A stretch of 12,174 nucleotides of DNA from positions 1 to 12,174 of IMG/VR virus record IMGVR_UViG_3300045988_033060, one strand, 5' to 3'. This document shows positions 1 through 12,174 of the stretch, one piece after another (positions within the stretch are counted from its first letter, which is position 1; each line of letters starts with the position of its first letter). The DNA comes from a virus. Under the pieces are notes generated by a model. That model searched no databases and had not been told where the DNA came from. It saw nothing but the letters and a program-made list of their open reading frames with translations. Position numbers and translations under genes: made by a program.

Positions 1-149
1 AAAGGTACACAAAGCACGCAGATTTAACATTTCCCAACACATATTTAACAGATGCTAACACACTTTGGCACGTTTTTTGCTATGCCACATTTACGATTCT
101 TTAACATATTTAGCACACCGCAACTTTTGTTAAACTTTCATAAAAATAA

Positions 150-230
150 TGTTTCACGTGGAACGGTGGCAAAGTGATTGTTTCACGTGGAACAAATGAG
201 GGGTATGTTATAAATGTTTCACGTGGAACA
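150..230 (+). promoter_or_regulatory. Array of three direct copies of the dyad motif TGTTTCACGTGGAAC(A) in the left ITR (candidate protein-binding or iteron-like sites)
   Basis: The GTTTCACGTGGAAC core occurs at 151-164, 180-193 and 216-229, giving 29- and 36-bp spacing. All three copies share the same orientation and the same deviation from perfect dyad symmetry (TTTC versus GGAA half-sites). Confidence 0.7.
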
Positions 231-285
231 TTGCAGGTGTTAACAACAGTTAATTTATTTCTTTAAGACTTTTTAACGAAAATAA

Positions 286-317
286 TTTGGTTGGTTCGCA
301 AAAACGTGGTATCTTTG
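286..317 (+). promoter_or_regulatory. Bacteroidota-type promoter inside the left ITR (-33 TTTG, -7 TAnnTTTG), driving the plus-strand arm
   Basis: TTTG lies at 286-289, followed by 20 nt and then TAtcTTTG at 310-317. The predicted transcription start site (TSS) falls at about 322-325, at the ITR boundary. The first ATG is at 364. Confidence 0.65.
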
Positions 318-363
318 CACCGTTATTAAGAAACATAAGTTGAACAATTAAAATTATAAAATT

Positions 364-693
364 ATGGCAAAGTATAATATTACAGTGAAAGCTAACAGTA
401 ACGCAATTTGTAACGGCACACGTTTTACAAAAGATATTCCATTTCCATCTACTGTTATAAACGGTAATATGAATGATGTAGCAAATCATATTAATAAGAT
501 GCTAACGGGAATTTATAATATTAATCGAATCTCTATACAGGGTGTGCGTTATCCTAAAACTATGTATGCTTATAAAAGCAACATTGCAGATATTTACGCT
601 ATCGGTTACGGTTTCGTAACTGTAACTAACATTTATAGCGGTGAGTACATCGAAACATTACGTTACGAGTTTACAGCCGAAAGAATCGGTTAA
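364..693 (+). CDS. Hypothetical protein (109 aa), first gene of the left arm
   Basis: The ATG is the first one downstream of the ITR promoter. The ORF is followed by a perfect 10-bp hairpin. I recognise no motif. The antisense ORF 250-489 is judged spurious. Confidence 0.6.
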   Translation: MAKYNITVKANSNAICNGTRFTKDIPFPSTVINGNMNDVANHINKMLTGIYNINRISIQGVRYPKTMYAYKSNIADIYAIGYGFVTVTNIYSGEYIETLRYEFTAERIG

Positions 694-701
694 TATTAAC
701 T

Positions 702-727
702 GCCTGTAAGGTTCACCCCTTACAGGC
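702..727 (+). terminator. Stem-loop after the 109-aa gene (possible attenuator or RNA-stability element)
   Basis: gcctgtaagg (702-711) pairs perfectly with ccttacaggc (718-727) around a 6-nt loop. The trailing ttaaaataatt is A/T-rich but is not a clean U-tract. Confidence 0.35.
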
Positions 728-743
728 TTAAAATAATTGATAT

Positions 744-947
744 ATGAAACAGTCATATTTTAGAATCACATTGAAACAAGCCGGTGAAGTTACGGTTTTT
801 ATGGTACGCTCAGACAAAGTAAGCGAGTTCTTTAATAATAAGATTGATTACTTACAGAGCAATTGTTCAATAACAGTAAAGGGGCGTTTTCAAACGCACA
901 AAGATTCTCGCAAGTGGTTTATTGTTACACCAATAGAAAATAAATAA
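744..947 (+). CDS. Hypothetical protein (67 aa)
   Basis: It is tightly packed between neighbouring genes on the same strand, with 5 nt between its stop codon and the next ATG. No motif recognised. Confidence 0.55.
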   Translation: MKQSYFRITLKQAGEVTVFMVRSDKVSEFFNNKIDYLQSNCSITVKGRFQTHKDSRKWFIVTPIENK

Positions 948-952
948 GTGAT

Positions 953-1375
953 ATGAAAAAGATTAAGTACTTTAAATTGTCTGAGTTCATCAACTCAGCA
1001 ACAGCAAAACGTTTGGGCATTGATAATATGCCATCGTTTGAAGTAGTTGATAACTTGAATCGTTTGGCTGATTATTTAGATGGTATTCGTGCAAAGTTGG
1101 GTAAACCAATTTTAGTTAATAGTGGGTATCGTTGCCCGATGCTTAATAAGGCTGTCGGTGGGGTTGTTAACAGTCAACACCAAAAAGGTTTAGCCGCTGA
1201 TTTGGTTTGTGCTGATATGGAATCTTTAGAAAAGGTTCTAAGAGAAACAGGTGGTTATGACCAACTTATTAAAGAACATCGTAAGGGTTCGAAAAGTTTT
1301 TGGTTTCACGTTTCAGTTTGTAACCGTAACGGCAAACCACGTAACCAAATAATTATGAATCTAGAAAAGAAATAA
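953..1375 (+). CDS. Peptidase M15-family (D-Ala-D-Ala carboxypeptidase-like, zinc) peptidoglycan hydrolase; candidate endolysin
   Basis: YFKLSEF...SGYRCPMLNKAVGGVVNSQHQKGLAADL contains the H-x6-D zinc-ligand signature. A later His sits in FWFHVS. The size and layout are typical of phage M15 endolysins. No signal peptide or transmembrane segment is present. Confidence 0.85.
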   Translation: MKKIKYFKLSEFINSATAKRLGIDNMPSFEVVDNLNRLADYLDGIRAKLGKPILVNSGYRCPMLNKAVGGVVNSQHQKGLAADLVCADMESLEKVLRETGGYDQLIKEHRKGSKSFWFHVSVCNRNGKPRNQIIMNLEKK

Positions 1376-1377
1376 TT

Positions 1378-1626
1378 ATGGAAAAACCGTTGGAACTTCT
1401 TTTAAATTCGGTTAAAGGTTCAATAGATAGTTTACAATATGTTGCAGACCAAACAACAGATATAAACGGTATGGTTTTAATTTCTGTTATTGATGTTTTA
1501 AAGGCGCAAGAACTAGTAATAAGAAACATTTCTTGTATTTTAGATAAAGAAAAATCAATTAAAAACCGTGCTTTGGATTTTATTTGCAAAAAAGGTTTTA
1601 TAATAGAATTTTATAAAACAAAATAA
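1378..1626 (+). CDS. Hypothetical protein (82 aa), last gene of the left arm
   Basis: Its ATG lies 2 nt after the M15 stop codon, and its own stop sits directly before the convergent terminator. It is preferred over the antisense ORF 1353-1589. Confidence 0.55.
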   Translation: MEKPLELLLNSVKGSIDSLQYVADQTTDINGMVLISVIDVLKAQELVIRNISCILDKEKSIKNRALDFICKKGFIIEFYKTK

Positions 1627-1628
1627 GA

Positions 1629-1660
1629 AAACAGGCGGTAACAATTTTACCGCCCGTTTC
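1629..1660. terminator. Bidirectional intrinsic terminator between the convergent arms
   Basis: ggcggtaa (1634-1641) pairs with ttaccgcc (1647-1654). The stem is extended by aaac/gttt pairing. It is flanked by an A-run on the left and a T-run on the right. It lies between the stop at 1626 (+) and the stop at 1663 (-). Confidence 0.7.
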
Positions 1661-1662: not shown

Positions 1663-3465
1663 TTATAAATAAACGCCTGTTTCAAGTTGTGAAATAATTT
1701 CGTCATATTCAGAAACCAAAAGATTTGCAGCGTTTAAATTCACGTTTGCAAACTGTGCAAAACCTGTAACTGTATTTATAGTTACATTTTCTTGCGTGTT
1801 GTTTACAGGAACGTCAACGGTTAAATTCTCAGTAATCAATACATAAGGTTCTAAACCGTACAAAATTTGTTCGTTCCACCGTTCACCGCCAACAACGTTT
1901 AAATCTGTTCCCAAACGGTAAAGAACATCACGTGACAAAGAAAAACTTTCAATTTGGAACGTTACACCTTCACACGATAACAACGCCACGGCATCCCCTG
2001 TAATCACGTTTACTTTGATAGATAAATTAACCGCTTTACCGATATATTTATTATCAATAGAAACAACGCCACGGCACGGAATAAACATTTGTATCTGTGC
2101 GTTAAAGTCTTCGTTGTTACCGTTTGCGCCTGTTAGTTCAACGTTTCCGAAATCTAGCACAATAACATCACTATCGGGATATTTAACCTTTATCCCCGTG
2201 TTGTAGTTACCGCATTTAAGAACGTCTTCACCGCCAACGGGCACGGTAGCAAATATTCTTTTGATACGGTTTACATAATCACCCAAATTCACTTCTGAAT
2301 AATTTGTGCCCGTGTCACTTTCACCGATTGGTTTAAAGAAACGTTTCTTTGCAAATTCATTCAAATTATCCAACGTAACGATATAAACGTTTATTGCACC
2401 GTAATTTTTAATTGTTGGCGGTTGTATCACATTTGCATTTGCATAAACCGTTAAATGTGCAGACCCTGTTGTAAGTTCAAACGTTATATTTCCCGTTTGC
2501 TTATCTTCTGAAATTGTGCCCTGGTTTGAAACCCAATTACCAATTTCATTTTGGTAATTAACTTGAATCTCTGTTAATTCCGAATTAGGGTTTGCTCTGA
2601 AATTAAAAGTGTAACTTTGCCCCGTTTTAACCTTTACAGGTTTATCGCCAACGATTTCGCAATTAATCAAACTGTAATTAACTTCGATAAAATCGCCTAA
2701 CAGATACTCGCCATTGATAACAACAGATTCCGTTGCTATAGGTACAATAGCCGTTGCAGTTTGGTTTGTTACAGTCATATTGTACGTATCGCCACCGTAT
2801 GTTATTGTAGGTGTGCCGTTAAACATTCCATTTGCGTTTCCTGTAACCGTGACGGTGTAATTTGTTTCACTTGCAACAGAACTTGCCGTTGTGTTCTGAA
2901 TATTGTTGGTTATTTGCAGTTCCTTTACACCTGCGATAAATTCACCCGTTAACGTTATTTTTGCGTTACTTGAACAATTTACAGTAAGTGTTCCAACATT
3001 TCCATTTATTGCAAAATCGCCCTGTTTCCAATCACCGAAAACACCTTGATACGTTGCAGTTAAACTTTTAAACGTACCGTCACCGTTACCCGTTACCGTT
3101 ATAATAAAATGGTCTTCGTCTTCACCCTGTTCGTCTGTAATTGTAACATCACCCTTTAAACCTGTTGTGTTGTAAGTTAACAACGTCGTTGGCGTTGGTG
3201 AACTTGCAACAAATTCACCTGTTAACGAAATTCGTGTGTTACTTGAACAATTTACAGTAAGTGTTCCAACATTTCCATTTATTGTAAAATCCCCCTGTTT
3301 CCAATCACCGAAAACACCTTGATACGTTGCAGTTAAACTTTTAAACGTACCATCACCGTTACCCGTTACCGTTATAATAAAATGGTCTTCGTCTTCACCC
3401 TGGTTGTCGGTAATTGTAACATCACCCTTTAAATATGTTGTGTCGTATCTCAATAAATTATCCAT
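1663..3465 (-). CDS. Tail structural protein (600 aa): N-terminal tandem beta-sandwich-like repeats fused to a C-terminal region resembling the phi29 gp9 tail-knob C-terminus; candidate tail tip or receptor-binding protein
   Basis: It is the last gene of the late operon. Residues 4-86 and 95-177 are near-identical repeats, followed by more divergent VTVTGN-type modules. The C-terminal ...MFIPCRGVVSIDNKYIGKAVNLSIKV... and ...FAQFANVNL...EYDEIISQLETGVYL recall, from memory, phi29 gp9 segments MYPYCVTEITDF... and FNYVQTKD...LQEIRTIFDNGITLW. Confidence 0.55.
   Translation of the reverse strand: MDNLLRYDTTYLKGDVTITDNQGEDEDHFIITVTGNGDGTFKSLTATYQGVFGDWKQGDFTINGNVGTLTVNCSSNTRISLTGEFVASSPTPTTLLTYNTTGLKGDVTITDEQGEDEDHFIITVTGNGDGTFKSLTATYQGVFGDWKQGDFAINGNVGTLTVNCSSNAKITLTGEFIAGVKELQITNNIQNTTASSVASETNYTVTVTGNANGMFNGTPTITYGGDTYNMTVTNQTATAIVPIATESVVINGEYLLGDFIEVNYSLINCEIVGDKPVKVKTGQSYTFNFRANPNSELTEIQVNYQNEIGNWVSNQGTISEDKQTGNITFELTTGSAHLTVYANANVIQPPTIKNYGAINVYIVTLDNLNEFAKKRFFKPIGESDTGTNYSEVNLGDYVNRIKRIFATVPVGGEDVLKCGNYNTGIKVKYPDSDVIVLDFGNVELTGANGNNEDFNAQIQMFIPCRGVVSIDNKYIGKAVNLSIKVNVITGDAVALLSCEGVTFQIESFSLSRDVLYRLGTDLNVVGGERWNEQILYGLEPYVLITENLTVDVPVNNTQENVTINTVTGFAQFANVNLNAANLLVSEYDEIISQLETGVYL
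2935..3456 (-). repeat. Tandem duplication (273-nt period) inside the 600-aa tail gene
   Basis: 2935-3183 aligns with 3208-3456 at a fixed 273-nt offset. There are long identical runs and only scattered substitutions, most clustered near the copy boundaries. Confidence 0.95.
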
Positions 3466-3468: not shown

Positions 3469-3912
3469 TTAAACGTTACCTTTAATAGTTACCATAATAA
3501 TACTACCTGTTTCATTCAACAACCCTTTATTCGGAAAATCTAGTTTTCTGATATTCGGGCGAGCATCAACCACATTTGTACGGTTTGAAAGATATTTGTT
3601 ACCGTTTTCACTTTTCGTTAACGTTGCGGTACTGTTTAAGATAATATCCTTATAAGTAAACAGAACGTCAATACGCAAACGAACTGTACAAATATCACCG
3701 TCTTGCTGTTTCTCAGAAACGAAATAATAACGGTTCAAACTTTCGATGTAAACGTAATTGAAAGTTACAGGCGTGCGAGTTCTGAAACGTACAACAGGTG
3801 TTAACACGTTGAATGTCGCATTTAACACGCCCGTATATTCTTCGTTTACCTGTAAATTCTTGTTTACTTCGTTGGGTTTGCCATCGTAAACGAAAGTTTT
3901 AATTTTAATCAT
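3469..3912 (-). CDS. Tail protein (147 aa) resembling the N-terminal domain of the phi29 gp9 tail knob
   Basis: It lies directly upstream of the 600-aa tail gene, separated by 3 nt. FNYVYIESLNRYYFVSEKQQDGDICTVRLRIDVLFTY recalls gp9 [41 protein letters not shown] (from memory). Confidence 0.45.
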   Translation of the reverse strand: MIKIKTFVYDGKPNEVNKNLQVNEEYTGVLNATFNVLTPVVRFRTRTPVTFNYVYIESLNRYYFVSEKQQDGDICTVRLRIDVLFTYKDIILNSTATLTKSENGNKYLSNRTNVVDARPNIRKLDFPNKGLLNETGSIIMVTIKGNV

Positions 3913-3986: not shown

Positions 3987-5171
3987 CTAGGCAACAAAGA
4001 ACACAACAAAGTTTTCGTTTGTGTCGTTGAAGTAGCCAGCATCGAATTTGAAGTAATTGTTGAAAAATTCTGCTTTGGCGTTGTAGTTTGTAGTTACACG
4101 CTTATCCAAATTGGTAACACCCAAAGCGTCACGGTCAAACATCACACCCAACACTCCACCGATAGAAACAGTTGCACCACTAGCAGATTTTACATCAATC
4201 TTTGAAACATTGGCGAAAGCGTAATCTGTGCCCGTTGCTTGCCAACTTGCCACGGTTTCCGCTTGTGGTAACAAAACGTTCTCATTATGGAACGTGTCTG
4301 CATACAGGTATGTTTTCGCAGCTGCTGCGAAATCTGACAACAGAACTGTATGCAAAACGTCTTTAGGTGTGAAACGTTCCTTACCGCCAACGTTAAACAG
4401 GGTTGAAATTGTCTGCAATCTGTCTGCATACAAACCCATCACATATGCAGCAAAACGGATAAAGTCTGGTGTTGTTACCGCTACATCTGCGTTCAAAGAT
4501 GCACCCGTCTTATCATTGTAAAGTTTCAACAGGTTCACACATCTAACTGTTGAAGCACTTGCATAGTCAACAGTTTCGTGTGTTGATGGAACGAAACCAA
4601 ATGCGGCTTTGTCTGCGTCCAGGGTTTCCGCAATCATATTGTTGATAGTACGCATAACAAGTGCGTCTGTCTTAATAGTCATTGACTTTTCAACTGCTGA
4701 GTAAATCATAGACAAAAAGCCGTTCAACTGTTCTGCGCTGCTAAAAGATTCCTTTACCTGTCTTTCAGTGATAGACACTGGAACTTCAAAAGTTACCTTT
4801 GAATTGAAGAACTTAGCAGAAACAGTTGGCTTGTGAAACACGTCCTGTTTGTACTCTGTACCGTCCGTAAGATTCCAACTATCATTTTCCTCAGCCTGTG
4901 GAACGTCAGCGGAAATTTTTTCCAATACAGAACCGAATTCCCAAGCGTCCATAAGAACCGATGGAACTTTACCACTGTAAGGGCGGTTAACGAAAACCAC
5001 TTTACCAATGTGGTTTACAAGTGACTTCACGTAATTATCAACGGCATTCTGATTAAAAACTTCATTGCCCAAATCAACAATACCTGTTAAATCTTCTTTT
5101 ACAATACCTGTTTTGCCCAATACTTCACCCGATACGGTGTTAACTAAACTATAAATCTGTTTTACTTCCAT
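3987..5171 (-). CDS. Major capsid protein, phi29 gp8-like (HK97 fold), lacking the C-terminal Ig-like domain
   Basis: Three segments parallel remembered phi29 gp8 segments. [23 protein letters not shown] parallels [36 protein letters not shown] parallels [23 protein letters not shown]...NFVVFFVA parallels VDKDWFMV...NAVAFVS. Its size, its position and the terminator behind it fit an abundant late protein. Confidence 0.85.
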   Translation of the reverse strand: [394 protein letters not shown]

Positions 5172-5189: not shown

Positions 5190-5759
5190 TTAATAAATAT
5201 CTATTGTTAACTCTTTTGCAAGTTCTGTTATTACTTGCGTTTTGAAATTAGTTTTGCGCAAACTCATTTCTTTTTGAATAATTTCGCTAGTAGGAACACT
5301 AGATGGGAAACCGTTTTTAACAACTGTTTTCGTGCCCGTTTCTTGTCGGTTTCCTGTGGAATCTCTTTGCTGCTTTGTGTCATTGCCGAAATCTCCATCA
5401 TTAAAAGTTACACTTGAATCAATGGTGTTGTTATTGCCTGTTTCGTCAACGGTGTTATTTGTTGTTTCCGTTGTCTTTGATGTTACAGGGTTCAACACAT
5501 CATATTCGTTATTAAACACTTGAATCTGTTTTTGCCATTCATCAAACTTCACCGTAATAATGCTTTTAACAATATCCGTTGCGGTTTCAGTTGTCACGGC
5601 ATCAACTAGAGTTCTGTTTCCATATTTGAAACGTAAATCAATATCAATTAATTTCGGGTCATCTTCCCCGAAAATTGATTCGTACAAAACAGGAAACAGG
5701 GGTGCAAAGATTTTTTCAAACAAACCATTTTCACCCGTGAAAAGTTCACTAAGTTTCAT
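5190..5759 (-). CDS. Virion-associated protein (189 aa); lower-collar or head-tail adaptor candidate, alternatively a scaffold
   Basis: Its start overlaps the portal stop by 11 nt. A helical N-terminal part is followed by a Thr/Asn/Asp-rich central stretch. Its position directly after the portal mirrors the phi29 gp10-gp11 order. No motif recognised. Confidence 0.4.
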   Translation of the reverse strand: MKLSELFTGENGLFEKIFAPLFPVLYESIFGEDDPKLIDIDLRFKYGNRTLVDAVTTETATDIVKSIITVKFDEWQKQIQVFNNEYDVLNPVTSKTTETTNNTVDETGNNNTIDSSVTFNDGDFGNDTKQQRDSTGNRQETGTKTVVKNGFPSSVPTSEIIQKEMSLRKTNFKTQVITELAKELTIDIY

Positions 5760-6804
5760 CTTTATTTTCTTTTTCTTCTGTTTCTTCTGTTTCTTCTGTT
5801 TCTTCTGTTTCTGTTTCTGGTTCTTCTGTTTCTTCTGTTTCTGTTTCTGTTTCCTCAGTTTCTTGCGTTTCTTCTGTTTCGTTTTCCGTTACAGGGTCAA
5901 CGTCTTCTGTTTCGGTGTGGTCGTGCCCGTCTTCTGTTGCTTTTAGCAACGACAAATAATTTTCGTGTTCGATTTTCCAACTTGACCCCAAAGTTACGGT
6001 TATATCCGTGCCGAACATTTCGTTAACACGTTTCACACCCTCAACACGTTCTGTTAACATTGAATCAACGAACGGCATCAAAGCGTCTATATTCATTGAA
6101 ACTTCTTGCGTGTTCAAACGTTCACGTTTCATATTATAGTTTGCATTCAAACCCAAATCGTTAAACAGGCTAGCTTTGTAGTACTGCAACAGTTCAATTA
6201 ATTGACCGATTTGTTGGTTTCCCTGTGTCGGTGGGGTCTGTAAGTTCACACCTTTGAAAAAGGCATTTTCACCGATAACAGAAAAATCACCGTTCAAAAT
6301 CTTCTGTAAGAATGATTCTGCGCTCTGTTTGGTCTTATCGTCACTTGCAGAAATAAGCATTGTGATTCTAGTTAAAATACTAGCCAAATTAAGCGTTATT
6401 GTTGCATCGGTGTAAAGAACTCCATATTTGCCAATTAACGGCAAAAGTGAATCCGCAAACGGTGTGTTGTTGATAACGACAATATCGGAATCGATTTTGA
6501 ACGTTTTGTTCAAATTTAACCACGGGTTTGCTACAACGTAATCTTTGCCGTGATAATAGGCATCGCATTCTCCACTCCGTGTGCCCTGTAACGCATACAG
6601 ATTCCCGTTTACTTCTGCTATTCCAACGTTACCAGATGTTTGCAGAATCTTTTCAAGTTCAACGGGCGGCATTGTTTCGGGTGTACCCGTATATTCAAAC
6701 ATCTTTGAAGTCATACAAAGAACTCGCTGCATAAACGTGAATAATGCTGCATCTTTGTTTTTAACTTCTGTTTGATACCTGTTATATAAGTTTTCCTTTT
6801 CCAT
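5749..6804 (-). CDS. Portal (upper collar/connector) protein, phi29 gp10-like, with an acidic Thr/Glu-repeat C-terminal tail
   Basis: [28 protein letters not shown] parallels gp10 [47 protein letters not shown] parallels NANLEKKERMVTDEVSSN (from memory). The C-terminus reads ...[37 protein letters not shown]. Confidence 0.85.
   Translation of the reverse strand: [351 protein letters not shown]
5760..5885 (-). repeat. Short tandem repeats (gtttcttct / gtttct units) encoding the E/T-rich portal tail
   Basis: The plus strand reads ttcttctgtttcttctgtttcttctgtttcttctgtttctgtttctgg... This region also produces the artefactual FFCFFC ORF on the plus strand. Confidence 0.9.
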
Positions 6805-6998
6805 TACTTTACAATCGTTTTAATTAAGGTGCAAAGTTCTGTTAACACCTTAGTGTTACTTTGCACGGTTTCGTTCAACTTGTCGGTTTCCTGTTGGTGG
6901 CGTTCGTTCTGTTTCTCCATATAAAAGAAAAGGGCGATACAAACAGCTATAGGAAAACCAACGTTACTGATTAATGATACTATTGCATTTGAGTCCAT
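6804..6998 (-). CDS. Small single-pass membrane protein (64 aa); holin candidate and first gene of the late operon
   Basis: It has one hydrophobic segment (AIVSLISNVGFPIAVCIALFFYM) followed by a charged, helical C-terminus. The GFPIAV-containing N-terminus recalls YvrJ-family small membrane proteins (from memory, unverified). Its stop overlaps the portal start (TAATG). Confidence 0.45.
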   Translation of the reverse strand: MDSNAIVSLISNVGFPIAVCIALFFYMEKQNERHQQETDKLNETVQSNTKVLTELCTLIKTIVK

Positions 6999-7030: not shown

Positions 7031-7062
7031 CAAAGATAGGAAAATTATCTGGCAACACCAAA
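7031..7062 (-). promoter_or_regulatory. Internal Bacteroidota-type promoter for the structural (late) operon
   Basis: On the minus strand, TTTG (7062-7059) is followed by 20 nt and then TAtcTTTG (7038-7031). The spacing and the -7 box are identical to the ITR promoters. The ATG of the 64-aa gene is at 6998. Confidence 0.65.
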
Positions 7063-7106
7063 TAAACCAGGGGAAAAAGTGTTTCACGTGAAACATTTTT
7101 AACCCC
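7058..7106 (-). terminator. Extended hairpin after the ATPase gene (candidate terminator of the early operon) built around the dyad motif
   Basis: GGGGAAAAAGTGTTTCAC|GTGAAACATTTTTAACCCC (7070-7106) can fold into a stem of about 17 bp with small bulges. On the minus transcript it is followed by UGGUUUAUUUGG. It starts 12 nt after the stop at 7119. Confidence 0.5.
7080..7095. promoter_or_regulatory. Perfect 16-nt palindrome TGTTTCACGTGAAACA (candidate operator or activator site upstream of the late promoter)
   Basis: It has the same core as the six ITR copies but is fully symmetric. Its centre lies about 60 bp upstream of the predicted late TSS. Confidence 0.65.
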
Positions 7107-7118
7107 TGTTAACAGATA

Positions 7119-8258
7119 TTAAGTAATAATGTTACTTCTTGCACTTGCCATCAAGTAATTACGCACAATTTCGCCAATTTCGTTATTCTGATAAAATACC
7201 TTATCTGTGGCAAAATACTTAGTTATCTGTGATTCCACATAACTTGCAGTACTCAACAACTTTCGTTTGTAGTTTGGTTTGCCGTTCATTTGCAACGAAT
7301 ATATCAAACTGTTGTCCGTATCCTTAATAGGGGTTGTTTTGTTGTGAATGTAAATGAAGTTGTTCACCCCAGTTTCTTCGTCTTCCAACTGAATAACGTT
7401 GCCCTGTAAGGTCATTTCGTTAAACTGAATGTAGAATACAAACAACACGTCATTTGGTTTATATTTTACAGGCAAATGAGGATATACAGCGAGTTCCCAT
7501 TTACCGCCCGTAATCATTTGCAGATTTTCGTTATCGAAACAGAAATATTTGTTGCTCGCTTTGTGTTTAACAATCGTGCTACAATATTCTACTGCAACCG
7601 TTGCACCGTGTTCACCGAAACGGTAAATATCAATAGTTCCCTGTTCCATCACTCGCACCTGTTTCAATCCCATTTCTGAGAAATAAGGGCAAAACTGATT
7701 CACCGTATTACCTAACATAAAAACTTTAACATCGTTTCTCTGTCTGATAATTGTACTCAACAGGTTCATATATAACATAAATTCATCGGGCAAATAGTAA
7801 CGTCTTGTTAGGAACTCATCAAAAACTATTGTAGTTATGTTTGGATAACTGCTAGATTTTTCGTGTTCCTGTTCTGAAAGACAAAACCCGAAACAGAACG
7901 GTGTGTTATCGGGTACACGCTTTTTGGTTTCGGGGTCATAAGACGAAAGAAACCATTTACCCGAAATATAAAAGACTTCGTTAAACTTACCGCCTGTTAA
8001 TTCCTGTATCACGCCATTTGCAACGTGATTTGCAAACAAACTTTCGGCACGTTTGCCCCTCAAGTCTTCACGCCATCTACGAATATACGCCATTTGCTTT
8101 CCTGTGCGCAAATATTCTTTGATACCGTACAATAACGTTGCATACGTTTTACCGTTTGAACGTTCACCGAAAATAACGTTGTAATCTGCATTCTTTGATA
8201 AAATGCGATTCAACGTGTAAAATTTCGGTGTTTCTACCTTTTCTTTCTTCTGTTTCAT
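7119..8258 (-). CDS. DNA packaging (encapsidation) ATPase, phi29 gp16-like
   Basis: Walker A FGERSNGKTYA parallels gp16 IGARGIGKSYA. GKQMAYIRRW parallels GEQFIYVRRY. Walker B YPNITTIVFDEFLTR parallels YPNVSTIVFDEFIRE. Confidence 0.9.
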   Translation of the reverse strand: MKQKKEKVETPKFYTLNRILSKNADYNVIFGERSNGKTYATLLYGIKEYLRTGKQMAYIRRWREDLRGKRAESLFANHVANGVIQELTGGKFNEVFYISGKWFLSSYDPETKKRVPDNTPFCFGFCLSEQEHEKSSSYPNITTIVFDEFLTRRYYLPDEFMLYMNLLSTIIRQRNDVKVFMLGNTVNQFCPYFSEMGLKQVRVMEQGTIDIYRFGEHGATVAVEYCSTIVKHKASNKYFCFDNENLQMITGGKWELAVYPHLPVKYKPNDVLFVFYIQFNEMTLQGNVIQLEDEETGVNNFIYIHNKTTPIKDTDNSLIYSLQMNGKPNYKRKLLSTASYVESQITKYFATDKVFYQNNEIGEIVRNYLMASARSNIIT

Positions 8259-8262: not shown

Positions 8263-10467
8263 TTATTTCTTTAATCTGATTCCCATTAAATAATTAATAT
8301 AAAGAACTGAAAGACTTAAAGTGTACCCCGTTGGTTCTAAGTGAACACCCGTTAACGTGTCGTAACTTGAAACAGTACCTTTGTAATCTTTTATAGTTCC
8401 TGTCTGCTCATAATCAATATACGTGTGTATGTTCTTACCTGTTGCCGATGGTGGTATATCCAGGTAATTTGTGAATGCATCAAAGATTCCACTTTCACCA
8501 AACGTTTCTAGCATATACGGGATAGCCGATTTTTTGTTAACGCCCGAAACGGTAATTGAGTAATCGTAATCTTTGCCGTTTACTGTAAGGGCGTTTTCTT
8601 CTTGTACCATATAGCGTTTTGCACCTAGAGTTTTGAAACGGGTGTAACGCCCCTCATAATCCCAAACACCCAACGGTTTTGCGATTCCCTTTATCGTGAC
8701 GGGTTCAACCTTTTCAAAGGGTATTTTGTGAAACTTACAGGCGGCACGCAATTTCTGTTGTGCTAAATCGTTGTACGCTTTGAAATATTCTTTGTGGGCA
8801 TCACCGTTCATAATTTTAACGGAATCGGTATCACTGTATATGTAATCGTCACCACATTCCGAAATACCCGTGAAAAGATTTCTACGGGCATAAGCGGTAA
8901 CATAAATACCCCACGGGTAAAACAAAAAGCGGTTTTTGCTATCATTGTATTTATTCAACATTTCTAACTGCTTTTCGCCTGTAAGGTGTTCAATATCCCA
9001 CGTTTCACCGTCACACAAAATTTCATCACGCAACGGGTTTGTAACACACATACCGTAACAACTGTTTAGCATTTCTTTGCTATTTAAATACTCAACCTCT
9101 TTGCCCTTTACACCCTTTAGTTTTGTTTTCATTTCATACAGGTGCAAAATAGATTCTACAAATTCAGTTGGCAAATATTCTTTTCTGTAACAAATCATTT
9201 GCCCAATTCGTATTTGTTCCCACGTGTAAAACTGTGAAAACACTTTGTAATCTATTTCGGTAATGGTCATACATATTTTCTTTGCACAAACCAATCGCCC
9301 GTTATTCTCAGAAACGTTTTCTTTCACGAAACATTTACTAACAGAAATCGGATTCTCGTTTTCTGATTTCGCAAATATGTTTGTTATCTCTACATCGAAC
9401 ACGCAACAAAATTTGCTAATCATAAACTCAAATTGCTTCATTGACTTTATAGGTACAATAACACCTGTGCTCATCGGAAACCTTTCTGAAACCATCACAT
9501 AAGGGTAACTGCTGGTAAAATCGTAACTGTCAACGTTTTCAATTACTTCATCGGTGTATTTTGCATTTGCGTGCGTAAAACCGCCTGAAAACGCCCGTTG
9601 TAACATCGCAAATTCTTCCATACCTGTTATATTTAAGTTGTGAATCTTATCAATATATTTAAAGTTTGGAATTGTTTTGCCTGTTTCGTCAGTTGTTTTA
9701 AAACAAACAGAACGGCAATATTTACGAACAAACCCCGTTTTTGTAATCGGCAAACGTGTTATTCCTTTGTAACGTTCCAATAGTTCCTGGATGTAGCACA
9801 TCACCACTTTTATATCATTCAGACAGTAACCGATTTCTTTTTGTGTTAACGGGGTTTTACTGTGACGTAACAAACTATAATCCAAATCACCAACTAACTT
9901 TTCACATTTGTAGATGTGTAATTGTTCGCCTAATTTCGCCAACGAATAACCCGATAATAAGTAACTGCATCGGAACTCTAAACCCGTTTTTGTTATTCCG
10001 TAAATTGGTTTTCGTAAATCAATAGAGAAAACTTTTTCCCATTCCAACAACTCACGGAAAAATTGGAACTCATAAGCCAAATTGTGAACATATATAATAA
10101 TTCGTTTCTTTGGGCAAAGTTCTAATATATCCACTATACTGGATAACATTTGCAAAAATTCTTCCCACGTTCGCCCCATTATGCAAAAACCGTTTATTCC
10201 AAATTGCCAAACATACATTAAAGAACACTTTTCCATTTTAGTTTCTTTACCGCCTAATTTCATATAGCGTTCGTAACTGTATGTTTCCCCGTATTCATCA
10301 CGGTAAAATGATGTAGTTTCAATATCGAAAGATACAGGAACATTCAAGAACTTTTCGCCCTTATTGTTTCCTGTAAAATTCTTTTCGTTAACAGCCAAAG
10401 ATAAAACCTTTGCAATATCTTTAGGCGTGTAAACTTCTGTATGTAGTTCAAAGGGTATTTTCTTCAT
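8263..10467 (-). CDS. Family B DNA polymerase, protein-primed type
   Basis: Exonuclease motifs: ExoI FDIETT, ExoII HNLAYEFQF, ExoIII YCLNDIKVV. Polymerase motifs: A DSYDFTSSYPY, B KEMLNSCYGM, C YSDTDSV, plus KxY in GAKRYM. The gene sits in a linear ITR genome directly downstream of the candidate terminal-protein gene. Confidence 0.95.
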   Translation of the reverse strand: MKKIPFELHTEVYTPKDIAKVLSLAVNEKNFTGNNKGEKFLNVPVSFDIETTSFYRDEYGETYSYERYMKLGGKETKMEKCSLMYVWQFGINGFCIMGRTWEEFLQMLSSIVDILELCPKKRIIIYVHNLAYEFQFFRELLEWEKVFSIDLRKPIYGITKTGLEFRCSYLLSGYSLAKLGEQLHIYKCEKLVGDLDYSLLRHSKTPLTQKEIGYCLNDIKVVMCYIQELLERYKGITRLPITKTGFVRKYCRSVCFKTTDETGKTIPNFKYIDKIHNLNITGMEEFAMLQRAFSGGFTHANAKYTDEVIENVDSYDFTSSYPYVMVSERFPMSTGVIVPIKSMKQFEFMISKFCCVFDVEITNIFAKSENENPISVSKCFVKENVSENNGRLVCAKKICMTITEIDYKVFSQFYTWEQIRIGQMICYRKEYLPTEFVESILHLYEMKTKLKGVKGKEVEYLNSKEMLNSCYGMCVTNPLRDEILCDGETWDIEHLTGEKQLEMLNKYNDSKNRFLFYPWGIYVTAYARRNLFTGISECGDDYIYSDTDSVKIMNGDAHKEYFKAYNDLAQQKLRAACKFHKIPFEKVEPVTIKGIAKPLGVWDYEGRYTRFKTLGAKRYMVQEENALTVNGKDYDYSITVSGVNKKSAIPYMLETFGESGIFDAFTNYLDIPPSATGKNIHTYIDYEQTGTIKDYKGTVSSYDTLTGVHLEPTGYTLSLSVLYINYLMGIRLKK

Positions 10468-11129
10468 TATAAGCCAAATTTTATAAAACTTTTTAGAATC
10501 TTTGCGAGTGTATCATCTAACAAACCTCTTATTCGTTCCTGTTCTTCTTCGATGGCTTCAGCCTGTTCGTTCAAATCGTCTTGCAACGAATCTGCTATTT
10601 TTATTGCATCACTTTCGATTTGGTCGGAAACGTCTTTACTCTCTTGTTCAAGTTCACCTGTAAAATCTTTGTACTGCATTAAATACTGTTCCAAAAACCT
10701 TTCATCTGAAACACTTGCAATTTTACCCATCAATTTATTTTGCATCAAACTAAATTCATCGTCATTTAGTTCGTATGTATCCTTCAGGTGCTGTGCATAT
10801 TCTTTTGTACCCGTTGCACTTGATGTTGGCTGTTGCAAAAACGCCACCGCTTTTGCATATTCGATTTTTAAATCATTCCAATCGTGTTTCATTGAAAATT
10901 TTGTGAACCCTTTTATATCACCCTTATTAAGAGCAACAACGGCTGGCGAAACAATACCCGAATTTTCAACATTTTGAATGCGTCTGTTTGCCTGTTGAAA
11001 AGTTCGTGCAATTTCTTTTCGTAAAACAGGGTCTGATTCTAAAGCGGTTAAAATCTCACTTTTTACGTGAATTTTACCAGTAAATGAAAAGGTTCTTTTG
11101 CTAAAACCAATAGGATTCCTTTTTGCCAT
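10467..11129 (-). CDS. Candidate terminal protein (220 aa)
   Basis: It lies immediately upstream of the polymerase and is translationally coupled to it (TAATG overlap at 10467), as in phi29 genes 3 and 2. The N-terminus is basic (MAKRNPIGFSKR..., RKEIARTFQQANRRIQN). The C-terminal half is strongly acidic (ELEQESKDVSDQIESD...EEEQE) and ends KFGL, compared with phi29 TP ...KGF. Confidence 0.5.
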   Translation of the reverse strand: MAKRNPIGFSKRTFSFTGKIHVKSEILTALESDPVLRKEIARTFQQANRRIQNVENSGIVSPAVVALNKGDIKGFTKFSMKHDWNDLKIEYAKAVAFLQQPTSSATGTKEYAQHLKDTYELNDDEFSLMQNKLMGKIASVSDERFLEQYLMQYKDFTGELEQESKDVSDQIESDAIKIADSLQDDLNEQAEAIEEEQERIRGLLDDTLAKILKSFIKFGL

Positions 11130-11148
11130 AACTTACTAAATTTAAAAT

Positions 11149-11196
11149 GAAACAAAAACGGGGGCAACAATAAACAAAGTTACTGTTTACCCCCGT
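11149..11196 (-). terminator. Intrinsic terminator or attenuator between the 121-aa gene and the terminal-protein gene
   Basis: cggggg (11159-11164) pairs with cccccg (11190-11195). There is an inner taaaca/tgttta stem. On the minus transcript the hairpin is followed by UUUUUGUUU. Confidence 0.6.
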
Positions 11197-11224
11197 GACG
11201 TTATCCACCCTTTACCCTACGAAA

Positions 11225-11590
11225 CTACTTATCTACAAAGGTAATACCGTAACACTTTTTGGCGTGCGATTCATATTCGTAAATTGTGTAACCGACTTTG
11301 TTGGCTTTGATAGCGTCCACCGCATCACTATTTGCGAGAATCTCTCTAACTGTGTCACCTGTGAACTGTGGTAAGTTAACTAATCGCTTGTTTTCTGCGT
11401 CAATGATTACAGGTGAATCGCCCAACTGCGATTTGTGAACGTACATACCATTAATAGGGTGTACTACATCACCGCCACCATCTTTCTCATCGTTGTAAAT
11501 ATCGGTCAACTTTACAAACGGAAAATCGGTCGTATCAATACCGAAACTAGTCTTATTGAAAGTACTAGCGAAACTAAAACCTTTAGCCAT
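11225..11590 (-). CDS. Early protein (121 aa); possible abundant DNA-binding or SSB-type replication accessory protein (positional guess only)
   Basis: The ORF is clean, lies upstream of the TP-Pol pair and is followed by an attenuator. Its size and position resemble phi29 p5/p6. No motif recognised. Confidence 0.3.
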   Translation of the reverse strand: MAKGFSFASTFNKTSFGIDTTDFPFVKLTDIYNDEKDGGGDVVHPINGMYVHKSQLGDSPVIIDAENKRLVNLPQFTGDTVREILANSDAVDAIKANKVGYTIYEYESHAKKCYGITFVDK

Positions 11591-11637
11591 AACTTTACAC
11601 TTTTAAAACGTTAAACTTCTGTTGTCTGTGAACGGGG

Positions 11638-11805
11638 TTACTTTACCTCATTCACCCCGTTAGCTGCTGCAAACTCGTTCAACCACTTCTTAAAACGGTT
11701 CAACTTGATAACCGCCTTATCATCTTTTGCGACTTCATCTGAAGTCATAAGAGCGTTAACACTAGTAATACAGTTGAAAACAGTTTCATTAAAAATCTCA
11801 TTCAT
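11638..11805 (-). CDS. Small hypothetical protein (55 aa), first ORF of the right arm (below the ORF-track cutoff)
   Basis: My hand translation gives MNEIFNETVFNCITSVNALMTSDEVAKDDKAVIKLNRFKKWLNEFAAANGVNEVK*. Its ATG sits at the position homologous to the left-arm ATG at 364, behind a related 5' leader. Confidence 0.45.
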   Translation of the reverse strand: MNEIFNETVFNCITSVNALMTSDEVAKDDKAVIKLNRFKKWLNEFAAANGVNEVK

Positions 11806-11857
11806 AATTTTACCTAATTTAAATTGTTAAACTTATATTGTTTCTTAAAACACGGTG

Positions 11858-11889
11858 CAAAGATACCACGTTTTTGCGAACCAACCAAA
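11858..11889 (-). promoter_or_regulatory. Bacteroidota-type promoter inside the right ITR, driving the replication/packaging operon
   Basis: It is the mirror copy of 286-317. On the minus strand, TTTG (11889-11886) is followed by 20 nt and then TAtcTTTG (11865-11858). Confidence 0.65.
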
Positions 11890-11944
11890 TTATTTTCGTT
11901 AAAAAGTCTTAAAGAAATAAATTAACTGTTGTTAACACCTGCAA

Positions 11945-12025
11945 TGTTCCACGTGAAACATTTATAACATACCCCTCATTTGTTCCACGTGAAACAATCA
12001 CTTTGCCACCGTTCCACGTGAAACA
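11945..12025 (-). promoter_or_regulatory. Array of three copies of the dyad motif in the right ITR
   Basis: GTTCCACGTGAAAC occurs at 11946-11959, 11982-11995 and 12011-12024, the reverse complements of the left-ITR copies. Confidence 0.7.
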
Positions 12026-12174
12026 TTATTTTTATGAAAGTTTAACAAAAGTTGCGGTGTGCTAAATATGTTAAAGAATCGTAAATGTGGCATAGCAAAA
12101 AACGTGCCAAAGTGTGTTAGCATCTGTTAAATATGTGTTGGGAAATGTTAAATCTGCGTGCTTTGTGTACCTTT

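Follow-up and report, generated by a model that had tools for sequence, protein, structure and literature searches.

Phi29-related phages of Gram-negative hosts, with genomes of 11-14 kb, have already been described as a whole group, in which a split tail knob combined with a short lower collar is the published architecture (PMC11476376). The smallest isolated tailed phages have been put at 11.6 kb (bioRxiv 10.1101/2025.06.18.659913). The stretch of DNA analysed here, IMG/VR record IMGVR_UViG_3300045988_033060 (12,174 nt; hereafter the window), is a real and complete linear genome of a phi29-related podophage bearing inverted terminal repeats (ITRs), and the phage is a new species-level member of this described small-phage group.

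Marker genes were assigned from Pfam matches above the gathering cut-offs, with PHROGs in agreement, and all features are collected in table 1. The closest cultured relatives were the Astrithrvirus-like phages of Gram-negative hosts Astrid, Phanie and DU_PP_III (11.2-11.9 kb), with identities of 46% for the DNA polymerase (PolB) and 58% for the major capsid protein (MCP; Astrid and Phanie), and gene order was collinear with theirs, the packaging ATPase directly following PolB in both. At least 366 related contigs, from gut metagenomes, were present in IMG/VR, and the best relative among those retrieved shared 91% ANI. Taken together, the window is very probably the genome of an uncultured podophage from a lineage that is gut-associated and sister to the Astrithrvirus-like phages. 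An earlier sequence-only reading had called it a reduced, divergent lineage, had given 16-20 kb as the usual size with P1 as the small outlier, and had named phi29, Cp-1, P68, C1 and P1 for comparison; the first two points are unsupported or out of date in view of the collinearity, the IMG/VR relatives and the published 11-14 kb group, and the Astrithrvirus-like phages are nearer than any of the five. Its estimate of about 16 genes becomes 15 ORFs, which make 90.3% of the window coding (95.3% without the ITRs), and its description of the window as almost entirely coding stands.

Table 1. Features of the window, with positions in nucleotides, strand and basis or remark.
Feature	Position	Strand	Basis or remark
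Left ITR	1..323		terminus 5'-AAAGGTACAC; presumed protein-primed replication origin
Palindromic motif GTTTCACGTGGAAC, three copies	151-164, 180-193, 216-229	+	candidate operator sites
Promoter TTTG-N20-TATCTTTG, Bacteroidota type	286..317	+	inner edge of left ITR; predicted to drive left operon
g109, clade-specific	364..693	+	homologues within clade only
g67, clade-specific	744..947	+	Pfam/PHROG/phage/clade searches
Endolysin, single-domain, Peptidase_M15_3	953..1375	+	Pfam E = 1.6e-20; PHROG endolysin E = 1e-36
g82, clade-specific	1378..1626	+	Pfam/PHROG/phage/clade searches
Bidirectional terminator-like hairpin	1628..1660	both	between convergent left and late operons
g600, major (distal) tail-knob protein	1663..3465	-	four Ig-like domains and knob C-module
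One 91-aa Ig-like domain recently duplicated in tandem	2929..3456	-	273-nt period, 91% identity, repeat family D4
g147, minor (proximal) tail-knob protein	3469..3912	-	equivalent of N-terminal part of phi29 gp9; BLAST to Astrid ORF009, Phanie gp9
Major capsid protein, phi29 type	3987..5171	-	Phi29_MCP E = 5.7e-55
g189, homologue of short 'lower collar' protein	5190..5759	-	homology to Astrid ORF007 family
Portal / upper collar, gp10 type	5749..6804	-	Phage_connector E = 4.1e-14; PHROG upper collar connector E = 8.9e-37
Small holin-like protein, first late-operon gene	6804..6998	-	PHROG holin E = 3.4e-9
Late promoter TTTG-N20-TATCTTTG, Bacteroidota type	7031..7062	-	predicted to drive late operon
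GC-clamped hairpin CAGGGG...CCCCTG, then U-rich tract	7065..7110	-	apex = perfect palindrome GTTTCACGTGAAAC (7081-7094); repeat I13
DNA packaging ATPase, gp16 type, last early-operon gene	7119..8258	-	Podovirus_Gp16 E = 2e-23
Protein-primed-type family B DNA polymerase	8263..10467	-	Pfam DNA_pol_B_2 E = 1.3e-14; PHROG E = 3.1e-70
Terminal-protein candidate, 220 aa	10467..11129	-	directly upstream of PolB; Astrid ORF002 / Phanie gp2 homologue
g121, phi29-type single-stranded DNA-binding protein (SSB)	11225..11590	-	tblastn
g55, clade-specific, first early-operon gene	11638..11805	-	homologues within clade only
Promoter TTTG-N20-TATCTTTG, right ITR	11858..11889	-	same promoter; predicted to drive early/replication operon
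Mirror copies of GTTTCACGTGGAAC	11946-11959, 11982-11995, 12011-12024	right ITR	candidate operator sites
Right ITR	11852..12174		complement of 1-323

The alignment of PolB with the phi29 DNA polymerase (1XHX) had E = 1.8e-8 and ran through ExoIII, motifs A, B and C, and KxY; ExoI reads FDIET and ExoII reads HNLAYEFQF. The earlier claim of all exonuclease and polymerase motifs is therefore right, but ExoII carries a Glu in place of the catalytic Asp of phi29, a conservative, lineage-specific replacement kept in the whole group, cultured Astrid and Phanie included. The gene previously noted in the terminal-protein position has same-position homologues in Astrid, Phanie, DU_PP_III, K58 g2 and a Shigella phage, and its ATG overlaps the PolB region, likewise in relatives. 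Since the family profile gave no direct match to the phi29 terminal protein in the PDB, this assignment is based on position and on what has been published at HMM level about the orthologues: Astrid ORF002 and Phanie gp2 have been termed p3-like terminal proteins (PMC11476376). For g121, tblastn returned 83 records, all from Staphylococcus phi29-like podoviruses (E down to 4e-5, 87% coverage), and the full-length matches among those listed carry an SSB annotation; Pfam, PHROG and phage searches with g55 gave no match. Judged by homology, replication would be protein-primed and start at both ends, with the terminal-protein homologue, the family B polymerase and the phi29-type SSB taking part. 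The ends read 5'-AAAGG..., with a terminal A-run that would be compatible with sliding-back initiation, and the AAA start resembles the 5'-AAAGTA of phi29 (PMC11476376).

The ATPase, portal and capsid protein matched the phi29-type families proposed for them. Across its whole length the ATPase shared 51-53% identity with Astrid-group ATPases, its Pfam match being confined to the N-terminal ATPase domain. Its location in the replication operon had been recognized correctly, as a terminator-like hairpin and a promoter part it from the late genes; this is, however, a trait of the Astrithrvirus-like phages as a group and not peculiar to the window. The C-terminal tail of the portal is rich in Glu and Thr and highly acidic, and a repeat with a 9-nt period (5749-5886; repeat families D1-D3) encodes it. 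In agreement with the sequence-only reading, no gp7-like scaffold gene was found in the window.

Three transcription units are predicted, of which the early unit would run inward from the right ITR promoter (g55, SSB, terminal protein, PolB and packaging ATPase), the left unit inward from the identical left ITR promoter (g109, g67, M15 endolysin and g82), and the late unit from a central promoter just past a terminator-like hairpin (holin, portal, short lower collar, capsid protein and two-piece tail knob). The promoter pattern was correctly oriented at exactly the three places needed and was kept in about 80 relatives, including the positions of the two ITR promoters and that of the late promoter, which follows the central palindrome at a distance of about 18 nt. 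Genome-wide, the excess over chance was modest, with 5 matches against 1.45 expected (5/200 shuffles reached 5), two of the five being the same ITR sequence, and sigma-70 sites were not enriched (38 versus 37.5 expected). The hairpin at 1628-1660 forms a stem of 14 pairs on the minus strand and of 8 pairs on the plus strand, with a T-rich tail after each, and that at 7065-7110 (RNA fold z = -3.24) is a candidate early-operon terminator and late-promoter operator. Searches of Pfam, PHROG, NCBIfam and phages with g109, and of Pfam, PHROG and phages with g67 and g82, gave no functional match; the last two also have homologues within the clade. The holin-like protein has one hydrophobic N-terminal stretch and a same-position homologue in all Astrid-group phages, the Astrid counterpart being annotated with one transmembrane segment.

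A Bacteroidota host is most likely, as suggested by the promoters, the lack of Shine-Dalgarno sequences and the endolysin, whose best cultured-phage matches were Bacteroides fragilis phages (46-50% identity). All three operon starts carry TTTG/TAnnTTTG, the recognised Bacteroidota promoter consensus. A Shine-Dalgarno sequence preceded 0/13 long ORFs (>=100 aa), versus 33-73% in the group's cultured Proteobacteria phages, and was recognisable for 0/15 annotated genes, whereas most Astrid genes have one. A low-GC gut bacterium outside the Bacteroidota, such as a member of the Gastranaerophilales (Melainabacteria), or another lineage without Shine-Dalgarno sequences is a possible, although less probable, host: the GC content of the window is 36.5%, and the two closest species-representative genome matches were whole phage contigs in Melainabacteria and Gastranaerophilales MAGs, with MCPs 91-92% identical. 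Bin labels in the wider family are nevertheless scattered (Prevotella, Bacteroidales, Clostridia, Elusimicrobia and Omnitrophota) and do not track the signals, two Christensenellaceae-binned contigs having 0% Shine-Dalgarno and Bacteroidota-type promoter matches; the promoters and the endolysin likewise argue for Bacteroidota.

The tail is encoded as g189, g147 and g600, so that the earlier statement that no appendage or tail-spike gene is recognisable holds for fibres and spikes and not for the tail as such. The match of g189 to the Astrid ORF007 family had a probability of 95% in hhalign (E = 2.7e-8), with iterated profile values of E = 1e-32 to 1e-41. The AF2 model (pLDDT 49) was too poor to test a collar role, and g189 is designated a putative short lower collar by this homology and from the literature on the collar function of ORF007-type proteins (PMC11476376). 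The g147 family profile matched 4eo2 'Major tail protein' (E = 3.2e-4), 8egs (E = 0.036) and the phi29 'Distal tube protein' 5fb4 (E = 0.043), in each case in the N-terminal region. The g600 protein begins with an array of four Ig-like beta-sandwich domains (residues 1-347; AF2 pLDDT 80-95; tandem Ig/FnIII arrays in Foldseek) and has a conserved knob module of 260 aa at its C-terminus. The module profile matched the C-termini of Astrid ORF010 (E = 8e-30), Phanie gp10 (E = 3e-16), a Shigella phage protein and K58 g2, and the module was C-terminal in all of 570 clusters at 50% identity; its sequence gave no match in the PDB, and its similarity to the C-part of phi29 gp9 was not reproduced, the module region being unmodelled in AF2. 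Alleles of g600 with 509 aa and one repeat fewer were found at 94-95% identity. Because homologue lengths step by about 88 aa and the left arm (1-3600) is the sole hypervariable part of the genome in clade comparison, the Ig array appears to be a variable host-contact element, and its domains are the likeliest to act as adhesin. The phage would thus have a minimal tail without fibres or spikes, the distal knob protein bearing an Ig-like array whose copy number varies in the population.

The same genome could also belong to a non-autonomous phage, a gut satellite whose virions, like those of the related Acinetobacter phage Phanie, would become infectious only once attached to a contractile tail borrowed from an unrelated helper myophage. 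The window shares Phanie-linked features (split knob with lateral Ig-like domains, short collar, no fibre or spike gene), the phage collection searched held no cultured member of this abundant clade, and other Gram-negative phi29-like phages might behave in the same way (PMC11476376). We consider this unlikely, as Astrid/astrithr, whose architecture is the same, is regarded as a non-satellite (bioRxiv 10.1101/2025.06.18.659913), the sequence holds nothing diagnostic of helper dependence, and the CHAP/amidase gene that follows the knob gene in Phanie is absent from the window.

A 14-nt palindrome precedes each of the three promoters; either ITR has three copies, and one lies in the central hairpin at the early/late boundary. 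The motif gave 16 strand-matches in the window against 0.33 expected, nearly all relatives have 2-3 copies per end, and the orientation toward the end is fixed (232 copies of GTTTCACGTGGAAC read inward, 0 reversed). Most likely it is the operator of one phage-encoded dimeric regulator, which would coordinate the early-to-late switch; no DNA-binding protein for it was identified in the window. That the palindromes are instead RNA structural elements, for example hairpins of a small ITR RNA, conceivably a functional analogue of the phi29 pRNA, is very unlikely. In favour of this, the terminal copies have a fixed asymmetry (GTTTCAC/GTGGAAC) that leaves a G-U pair on the strand read inward and an A-C mismatch on the opposite one, and the gp16-type Pfam match covers only the N-terminal half of the ATPase; the ITR (z = -2.0) and the central region (z = -3.2) also fold better than shuffles, scores that carry little information since any palindrome folds well. 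Against an RNA element, no Rfam family, pRNA included, matched at E <= 1, the ITR promoters were found only downstream of the palindromes and pointing away from them, and pRNA has been reported only in phi29 and its close Bacillus relatives (PMC11476376).

The ITR arms were 100% complementary, as first described, and past position 323 both ends were still recognisably homologous, with indels and divergence; the ITR is thus that stretch of a longer terminal homology which has been homogenised, and a simple assembler duplication was rejected on the same ground. The perfect identity of the two copies may in part be an assembler collapse. ITRs were 196-335 nt long among relatives with true ends, and genome sizes within the clade were 11,574-12,682 bp. 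Eighteen contig ends among relatives stop exactly at AAAGGTACAC, and this terminus ends dozens of related contigs from independent assemblies. In 9 related public contigs a TruSeq (Illumina) adapter ending in ...CTCTTCCGATCT was joined straight to AAAGGTACAC with zero bases between, which identifies the first and last bases of the window as the physical DNA terminus. That the window is no complete phage genome (an assembler-made ITR, part of some larger element, or a linear plasmid) is hardly credible: assemblers can yield identical copies, and the terminal inverted repeats of many related contigs equal common assembler k-mers (55, 99, 119 and 141), but independent assemblies agree on one terminus and on 11.6-12.7 kb, adapters are ligated there in relatives, replication, packaging, head, tail and lysis genes are all present and collinear with the cultured 11.2-11.9 kb phages, and cultured relatives also carry ITRs (84, 171 and 219 nt, annotated or detectable). 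The earlier claim of a full-length genome is upheld on these grounds, and the possibility it had raised of the ITRs being an assembly artefact is answered by the shared terminus and size and the ligated adapters. Stubs of 53-88 nt lay outside the terminus in three related contigs, and a Nextera-type related contig broke 13 nt inside it.

The window represents one species in a gut-associated lineage, abundant and uncultured, that is sister to the Astrithrvirus-like phages. Its best protein matches were small phages of Gram-negative hosts, namely the phages Astrid, astrithr and assan of Salmonella (11.6–11.7 kb), Enterobacter phage Entb_47, Acinetobacter phage Phanie (11.9 kb), Pectobacterium phage DU_PP_III (11.5 kb), Shigella phage vB_SHGBLB0004 (11.2 kb) and Vibrio phage K58 g2 (10.4 kb), and not phi29, Cp-1, P68, C1 and P1, the comparison set proposed in the sequence-only reading. 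Identities to the Astrid-group phages were 42–46% for PolB, 56–59% for the major capsid protein (MCP), 51–53% for the ATPase and 36–39% for the portal. The Astrid-group maps were collinear with the window, running from small gene(s) through a gene in the terminal-protein (TP) position, PolB, ATPase, a small membrane protein, the portal, a ~185-aa protein, MCP, a ~146-aa protein and a large protein to a run of small genes encoded on the opposite strand. Every gene of the Astrithrvirus-like order (cluster 23 of PMC11476376 and allies; TP-PolB-ATPase-TM-portal-collar-MCP-knob N-knob C, 11–14 kb) was found in place with a homologue. Megablast of the window gave no nucleotide match among 50,697 phage records, and the window therefore lies outside the genus Astrithrvirus; in ICTV practice, a genus corresponds to about 70% intergenomic similarity. 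The best fetched relative, contig L004, had 91% ANI over 97% of the length, most others 84–88%, and under the usual species criterion of 95% ANI the window is thus a species of its own.

Astrithrvirus and its allies share with the window small genomes (10.4–11.9 kb) with ITRs, the same gene order and a Glu in the ExoII motif of PolB, but differ in several respects. The window has a 120-nt early/late intergenic cassette, made up of a hairpin and a promoter, between the ATPase gene and the one that follows, whereas these two genes abut or overlap in Astrid, Phanie, K58 g2 and the Shigella phage; the window lacks the CHAP/amidase gene after the knob gene and carries an M15 peptidase gene on the opposite strand; it has no Shine–Dalgarno (SD) sequences and has Bacteroidota-type promoters; its ITR is longer and contains repeated palindromes; and its small early and left-arm genes are unrelated. 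A 2024 review with bioinformatic analysis already describes the wider group as having genomes of 11–14 kb, TP, SSB and PolB detectable by HMM, a shortened lower collar and a tail knob divided between two genes, of which the larger carries Ig-like domains in varying number, with fibre or spike undetectable (PMC11476376), and a 2025 preprint gives 11.6 kb (Astrid/astrithr) as the smallest isolated tailed phage (bioRxiv 10.1101/2025.06.18.659913). The earlier size framing, with phi29-like phages mostly at 16–20 kb and P1 as the outlier, is therefore outdated. What had been taken for a reduced lineage is explained by membership of this collinear group, and the supposedly peculiar position of the ATPase gene, directly after PolB, is a group trait. 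The genome itself adds little: its size class, gene set, gene order and split knob are all in the literature, as is the idea of Bacteroidales phi29-like phages, and public catalogues already list its near relatives by the hundred.

Phanie (Aci01-2-Phanie) resembles the window in gene order, in its ITR (171 nt) and in its split knob with N-terminal Ig-like domains and a conserved C-terminal module, but its gp10 has 854 aa with six predicted extra domains, compared with 600 aa and four domains in the window's g600 (the large distal knob protein), and an amidase gene follows the knob gene. Phage phi29 (Bacillus, Salasmaviridae) shares the PolB motifs, MCP, gp10 connector, N-terminal domain of the gp16 ATPase and an AAAG terminus, and its gp9 is related to g147, the proximal knob protein. 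It has a 19.3-kb genome, a 6-bp ITR, pRNA, scaffold gp7, head fibres, appendages of gp12, a one-piece knob and a gene 16 that closes the late operon (PMC11476376); in the window, at 12.2 kb, none of pRNA, gp7, head fibres, gp12 and the one-piece knob was found, and the ATPase gene follows PolB. The characters of Salasmaviridae, or phi29 in the strict sense (pRNA, scaffold, fibre, appendage, place of gene 16, about 19 kb), were accordingly absent. The faecal Bacteriophage sp. isolate 2692_55609 (cluster 30; 12,148 bp), for which a Bacteroidales host was suggested, was placed by MCP and DNAP beside Amedibacillus phage AD70P2 and not Astrid (PMC11476376); likened here by description only, it is a small phi29-related gut genome with the split-knob plan, but with 42.5% GC against 36.5% in the window. 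Resemblance to the Staphylococcus phi29-like podoviruses (Rountreeviridae; SLPW, 66) is distant: they have a phi29-type virion and replication and an SSB homologous to g121 of the window, but 17–18 kb genomes, Gram-positive hosts, tail fibres and tail lysins. The K58 g2 record (OZ195715.1; 10,390 bp) opens inside the gene order, with the terminase at its first base, and closes with a truncated polymerase; no ITR was detected in it. Probably the assembly is permuted or incomplete, and its small size is therefore no genome-size record.

The ITR arms at the two ends of the window were 323 nt long and 100% complementary, as the sequence-only reading had it. Inward of them the two ends could still be aligned, with substitutions and indels, and the ITR is therefore the homogenised outer portion of a longer terminal homology. 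For comparison, 80 IMG/VR contigs were fetched from at least 366 confirmed relatives (MCP identity 89–98%; nearly all 11–12.7 kb). The window's own first bases, AAAGGTACAC, were the exact stop of 18 contig ends among these relatives, and in nine contigs (L010, L016, L017, L032, L050/L089, L052, L065, L077 and L078) the TruSeq adapter ending in CTCTTCCGATCT was joined to AAAGGTACAC with zero intervening bases. In one contig with a Nextera adapter the break lay 13 nt inside the terminus, as tagmentation predicts. That adapters were ligated at the same nucleotide in independent libraries indicates a blunt physical DNA end, which makes the window a full-length linear genome; the earlier claim of completeness is thereby backed independently by physical ends. 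Contigs with both true ends measured 11,574–12,682 bp, with ITRs of 196–335 nt. The window thus shares with the phi29-related assemblage a linear genome with ITRs and defined ends. The untrimmed TruSeq adapter in public assemblies of the clade is a contamination artefact that happens to pinpoint the physical ends.

Sequence beyond the terminus was present in six contigs and was examined for integration or host flanks. Two (L031, L053) were internal-phage chimeras, one (L076) had adapter plus 7 nt, and three (L004, L037, L072) had unique stubs of 53–88 nt. No common flank was found among the three stubs, and no integration was seen in the six contigs. The stubs were non-phage, each different and GC-richer, and are probably ligation chimeras at the blunt end. 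The phi29 terminus is AAAGTA, to which the AAA start of the window is similar (PMC11476376); such a start would permit sliding-back initiation.

Fifteen ORFs, of which the four at the left end are on the plus strand and the other 11 on the minus strand, covered 90.3% of the window (95.3% without the ITRs), in line with the description of the window as almost entirely coding. Marker families were called at Pfam gathering scores, with PHROGs as a second, concurring set. Phi29_MCP (E = 5.7e-55), Phage_connector (gp10; E = 4.1e-14) and Podovirus_Gp16 (E = 2e-23; N-terminal domain only, profile positions 5–168 of 331) each exceeded the gathering score, which upheld the phi29-type capsid, portal and ATPase proposed before; DNA_pol_B_2 was matched at E = 1.3e-14 (54.4 bits, cut-off 25.8; PHROG E = 3.1e-70). 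Together with the PolB alignment and the ITR ends, these families support the assignment as a phi29-related protein-primed phage genome. No ORF matched the scaffold gp7, head-fibre or appendage gp12 families, or any fibre or spike family, in Pfam or PHROG, and a gp7-like scaffold gene, reported missing before, was likewise not found among the window ORFs. The window contained no tRNAs. The phage pRNA family is present in Rfam, and an Rfam scan of the whole window gave no match at E ≤ 1 except a sub-threshold trpB motif. A pRNA-like reading of the ITR was dropped, as palindromes inflate fold scores.

The small genes g55, g109, g67 and g82 (named, as all window ORFs here, by length in aa) had homologues within the clade only and no family match in Pfam or PHROG, to which NCBIfam added nothing; for g109 no phage homologue outside the clade was found. 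The g109 profile matched 107 ORFs across just 70 loci, so some relatives have two paralogues in a hypervariable left arm. The portal C-terminus is a Glu/Thr-rich tail of extreme acidity (ETEETEETE...); the 9-nt periodic repeat that encodes it overlaps the start of g189, the short lower-collar homologue, by 11 nt. Given that there is no scaffold gene, an assembly or DNA-mimicry role for this tail is conceivable.

PolB matched phi29 polymerase structures (1XHX and others) at E = 1.8e-8, and the motifs ExoIII (YCLNDI), A (DFTSSYP), B (KEMLNSCYG), C (YSDTDS) and KxY were aligned, so that the polymerase is of the protein-primed type seen in the phi29-related assemblage. ExoI reads FDIET. The earlier statement that all motifs are present stands for these six; ExoII (HNLAYEFQF, PolB residues 128–136) is present, but Glu replaces the catalytic Asp of phi29. 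The Glu variant was kept in about 100 relatives, cultured Astrid and Phanie among them, across both the Astrithrvirus-like group and the clade, and is therefore a lineage trait and not a lesion. The protein g121 matched the annotated SSB of Staphylococcus phi29-like podoviruses (E down to 4e-5, coverage 87%), and every one of its 83 matching records came from such a phage. Directly upstream of PolB, a 220-aa protein was homologous to those that Astrid-group phages carry in the TP position, called p3-like (PMC11476376); on this homology it is a candidate terminal protein. Its Ser61, within an 'SPA' motif, is nearly invariant and is a candidate for the residue that would be linked to DNA. The TP-family profile gave no significant match to the phi29 TP in the PDB.

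Coordinates of features in the window and in related contigs
Feature	Sequence	Position	Strand	Remark
Variable region	window	1-3600		left operon and g600
GTTTCACGTGRAAC palindromes	window	151-229		three, left ITR, upstream of ITR promoter
Promoter	window	286-317	+	inner edge of left ITR
GC-rich hairpin	window	702-727		between g109 and g67
Bidirectional terminator-like hairpin	window	1628-1660		between convergent left and late operons
g600	window	1663-3465		large distal knob protein
Tandem Ig-domain duplication	window	2929-3456		g600 domains 1 and 2
g147	window	3469-3912		proximal knob protein
Conserved region	window	3600-11,700		all 60 closest relatives
g189	window	5190-5759		short lower-collar homologue
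Acidic portal tail	window	5749-5886		portal C-terminus
Promoter	window	7031-7062	-	sole internal intergenic gap
GTTTCACGTGRAAC palindrome	window	7081-7094		one perfect copy, early/late intergenic hairpin
PolB ExoII motif	window	9982-10008		
Promoter	window	11858-11889	-	inner edge of right ITR
GTTTCACGTGRAAC palindromes	window	11946-12024		three, right ITR, upstream of ITR promoter
Long g147-like ORF	L127	617-2818		
Long g147-like ORF	L098	4302-5777		
Long g147-like ORF	L117	5753-6844		
Long g147-like ORF	L114	3530-4384		

The Bacteroidota promoter consensus, which we take to be TTTG, 17–23 nt and TAnnTTTG, was matched five times in the window (1.45 expected), and three of the five matches lay exactly at operon starts in the correct orientation, with the −7 box TATCTTTG in common. 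This three-promoter arrangement was repeated in nearly all 80 relatives. Sigma-70-type sites, scanned over the window, were not enriched (38 found, 37.5 expected). The 14-mer GTTTCACGTGRAAC gave 16 strand-matches (0.33 expected), and the number, place and orientation of the palindromes were conserved across about 80 relatives; read inward, 232 terminal palindromes were GTTTCACGTGGAAC and none was reversed, and the central copy was mostly perfectly symmetric. On the minus strand, the central region (z = −3.2) consisted of the ATPase stop codon, a hairpin with CAGGGG and CCCCTG flanking the palindrome, a U-rich tract, the −33 TTTG, the −7 TATCTTTG and the ATG of the holin. This layout resembles a terminator of the early operon joined to the late promoter, and it is specific to the lineage of the window, because the corresponding genes abut or overlap in the four Astrid-group genomes compared. 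On our reading a single phage-encoded dimeric regulator would act at all three promoters via the palindromes; no candidate protein was found. In a less likely reading, one small clade-specific protein would control the three transcription units via the ITR and central palindromes; were this so, the early/late switch would be minimal and fully symmetric. In the left operon, a strong 10-bp GC-rich hairpin, GCCTGTAAGG...CCTTACAGGC, without a clear plus-strand T-tract, may be an attenuator. A sequence similar to this hairpin was seen at the terminus of L031, an apparent chimera.

No SD sequence was found upstream of the window genes, whereas Astrid genes carry them. Cultured Proteobacteria phages had an SD in 33–73% of ORFs and 0–1.8 Bacteroidota-type promoters per 10 kb, against 0–8% and 3.5–5.1 per 10 kb in the window and contigs L088 and L089 (MCP 91–92% identical); other relatives down to 67% MCP identity had 0–9% and 1.8–4.1 per 10 kb, whatever their MAG bin. 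The endolysin is a single-domain M15_3 protein whose closest cultured-phage matches were B. fragilis phages (46–50% identity), the remaining best matches among those listed being Achromobacter phages and uncultured faecal contigs. A Bacteroidota host is accordingly the favoured, reasonably probable assignment. The MAG bins disagree on the host: the two closest contigs were binned in Gastranaerophilales/Melainabacteria MAGs, others in Prevotella, Bacteroidales, many Clostridia and Omnitrophota. These labels were rejected as host evidence, being scattered across phyla and in conflict with the expression signals. Whole family phage genomes of about 12 kb (L088–L127) were seen in MAGs including Melainabacteria, Prevotella, Christensenellaceae, Elusimicrobiaceae and Omnitrophota; small phage contigs are likely to be widely mis-binned in species-representative genomes.

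The sequence-only reading had recognized no appendage or tail-spike gene. No fibre or spike family was indeed matched, but g189, g147 and g600 are, by homology, tail genes of the form published for the group. The g189 protein matched the Astrid ORF007 family, named short lower collar (PMC11476376), over nearly its full length by hhalign (probability 95%, E = 2.7e-8), and at E down to 4e-41 with an iterated profile. An AF2 model from a 10-sequence, low-diversity alignment reached a pLDDT of only 49; its predicted helix, long beta-hairpin and helix layout is compatible with a collar at that poor confidence. The ORF007 family profile gave no credible match in the PDB, and searching the PDB with the single sequences of MCP, g189 and g600 yielded no meaningful match.

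The g147 protein matched Astrid ORF009 and Phanie gp9, and its family profile (14 members) matched the N-terminal regions of phi29-type knob structures in the PDB (4eo2 'Major tail protein', E = 3.2e-4; 8egs, E = 0.036; phi29 gp9 'Distal tube protein' 5fb4, E = 0.043), so that a gp9-type tail knob was found through its N-part. The final 260 aa of g600 are a widespread conserved module (570 clusters at 50% identity), invariably C-terminal in proteins of 291–1030 aa; the module profile matched the C-termini of Astrid ORF010 (E = 8e-30), Phanie gp10 (E = 3e-16), the Shigella phage protein and that of K58 g2. The profile had no credible match in the PDB and AF2 left the C-terminal 250 aa unmodelled, so its equation with the C-part of gp9 is taken from the literature (PMC11476376). 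Residues 1–347 were modelled as four beta-sandwich domains (pLDDT 80–95), which Foldseek matched to generic tandem Ig/FnIII arrays. The knob is thus split, its larger gene carries Ig-like domains at the N-terminal end, and neither fibre nor spike was matched.

Domains 1 and 2 of g600 are a recent 273-nt tandem duplication (91% identity). Alleles without one repeat (P0094, P0100; 509 aa) were 94–95% identical, and longer ones (P0023, P0037) had about 800 aa; close homologues measured 509, 600, about 700 and about 800 aa, and lengths in the family rose in steps of about 88 aa (345, 435, 520, 615, 705, 790, 880). Members of the clade differ in how many Ig-like domains their distal knob protein has, and across the wider family this number is quantised. 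In some distant relatives the g147-like N-part was seen in far longer ORFs (285–734 aa), which suggests unsplit or differently split knob genes. The split has been dated to the ancestor of the Gram-negative lineage (PMC11476376), and these ORFs could date it.

As cited in PMC11476376 and PMC13587820, Phanie (Pourcel et al. 2024, J Virol) is reported to need the tail of a helper myophage, Aci01-1. By kinship to Phanie the clade is a candidate for gauging how frequent tail borrowing is among minimal podophages. That the clade is itself a borrower of the Phanie type, making capsid, portal, collar and stub knob itself yet dependent on the contractile tail of a Bacteroidota helper for infectivity, seems improbable; as a possibility raised by analogy, it may nonetheless be the most interesting one for the clade. 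The variable Ig-like array on the knob would in that case be a docking or adhesion module.

The clade is dense and evidently widespread in the gut, and has no cultured member. Its expression signals give a concrete Bacteroidota host hypothesis that could steer isolation, and its exact physical ends could aid a protein-primed replication system or a minimal phage chassis for Bacteroidota. Among the 60 closest relatives variation was concentrated in the left operon and g600, which fits host-interaction functions. The JGI and ENA collections already contained the exact g600 protein, in a contig of 12,174 bp (P0001); an exact MCP look-up returned just one 2.4-kb Logan contig with DNA; and certain g189 clusters held hundreds of member sequences.
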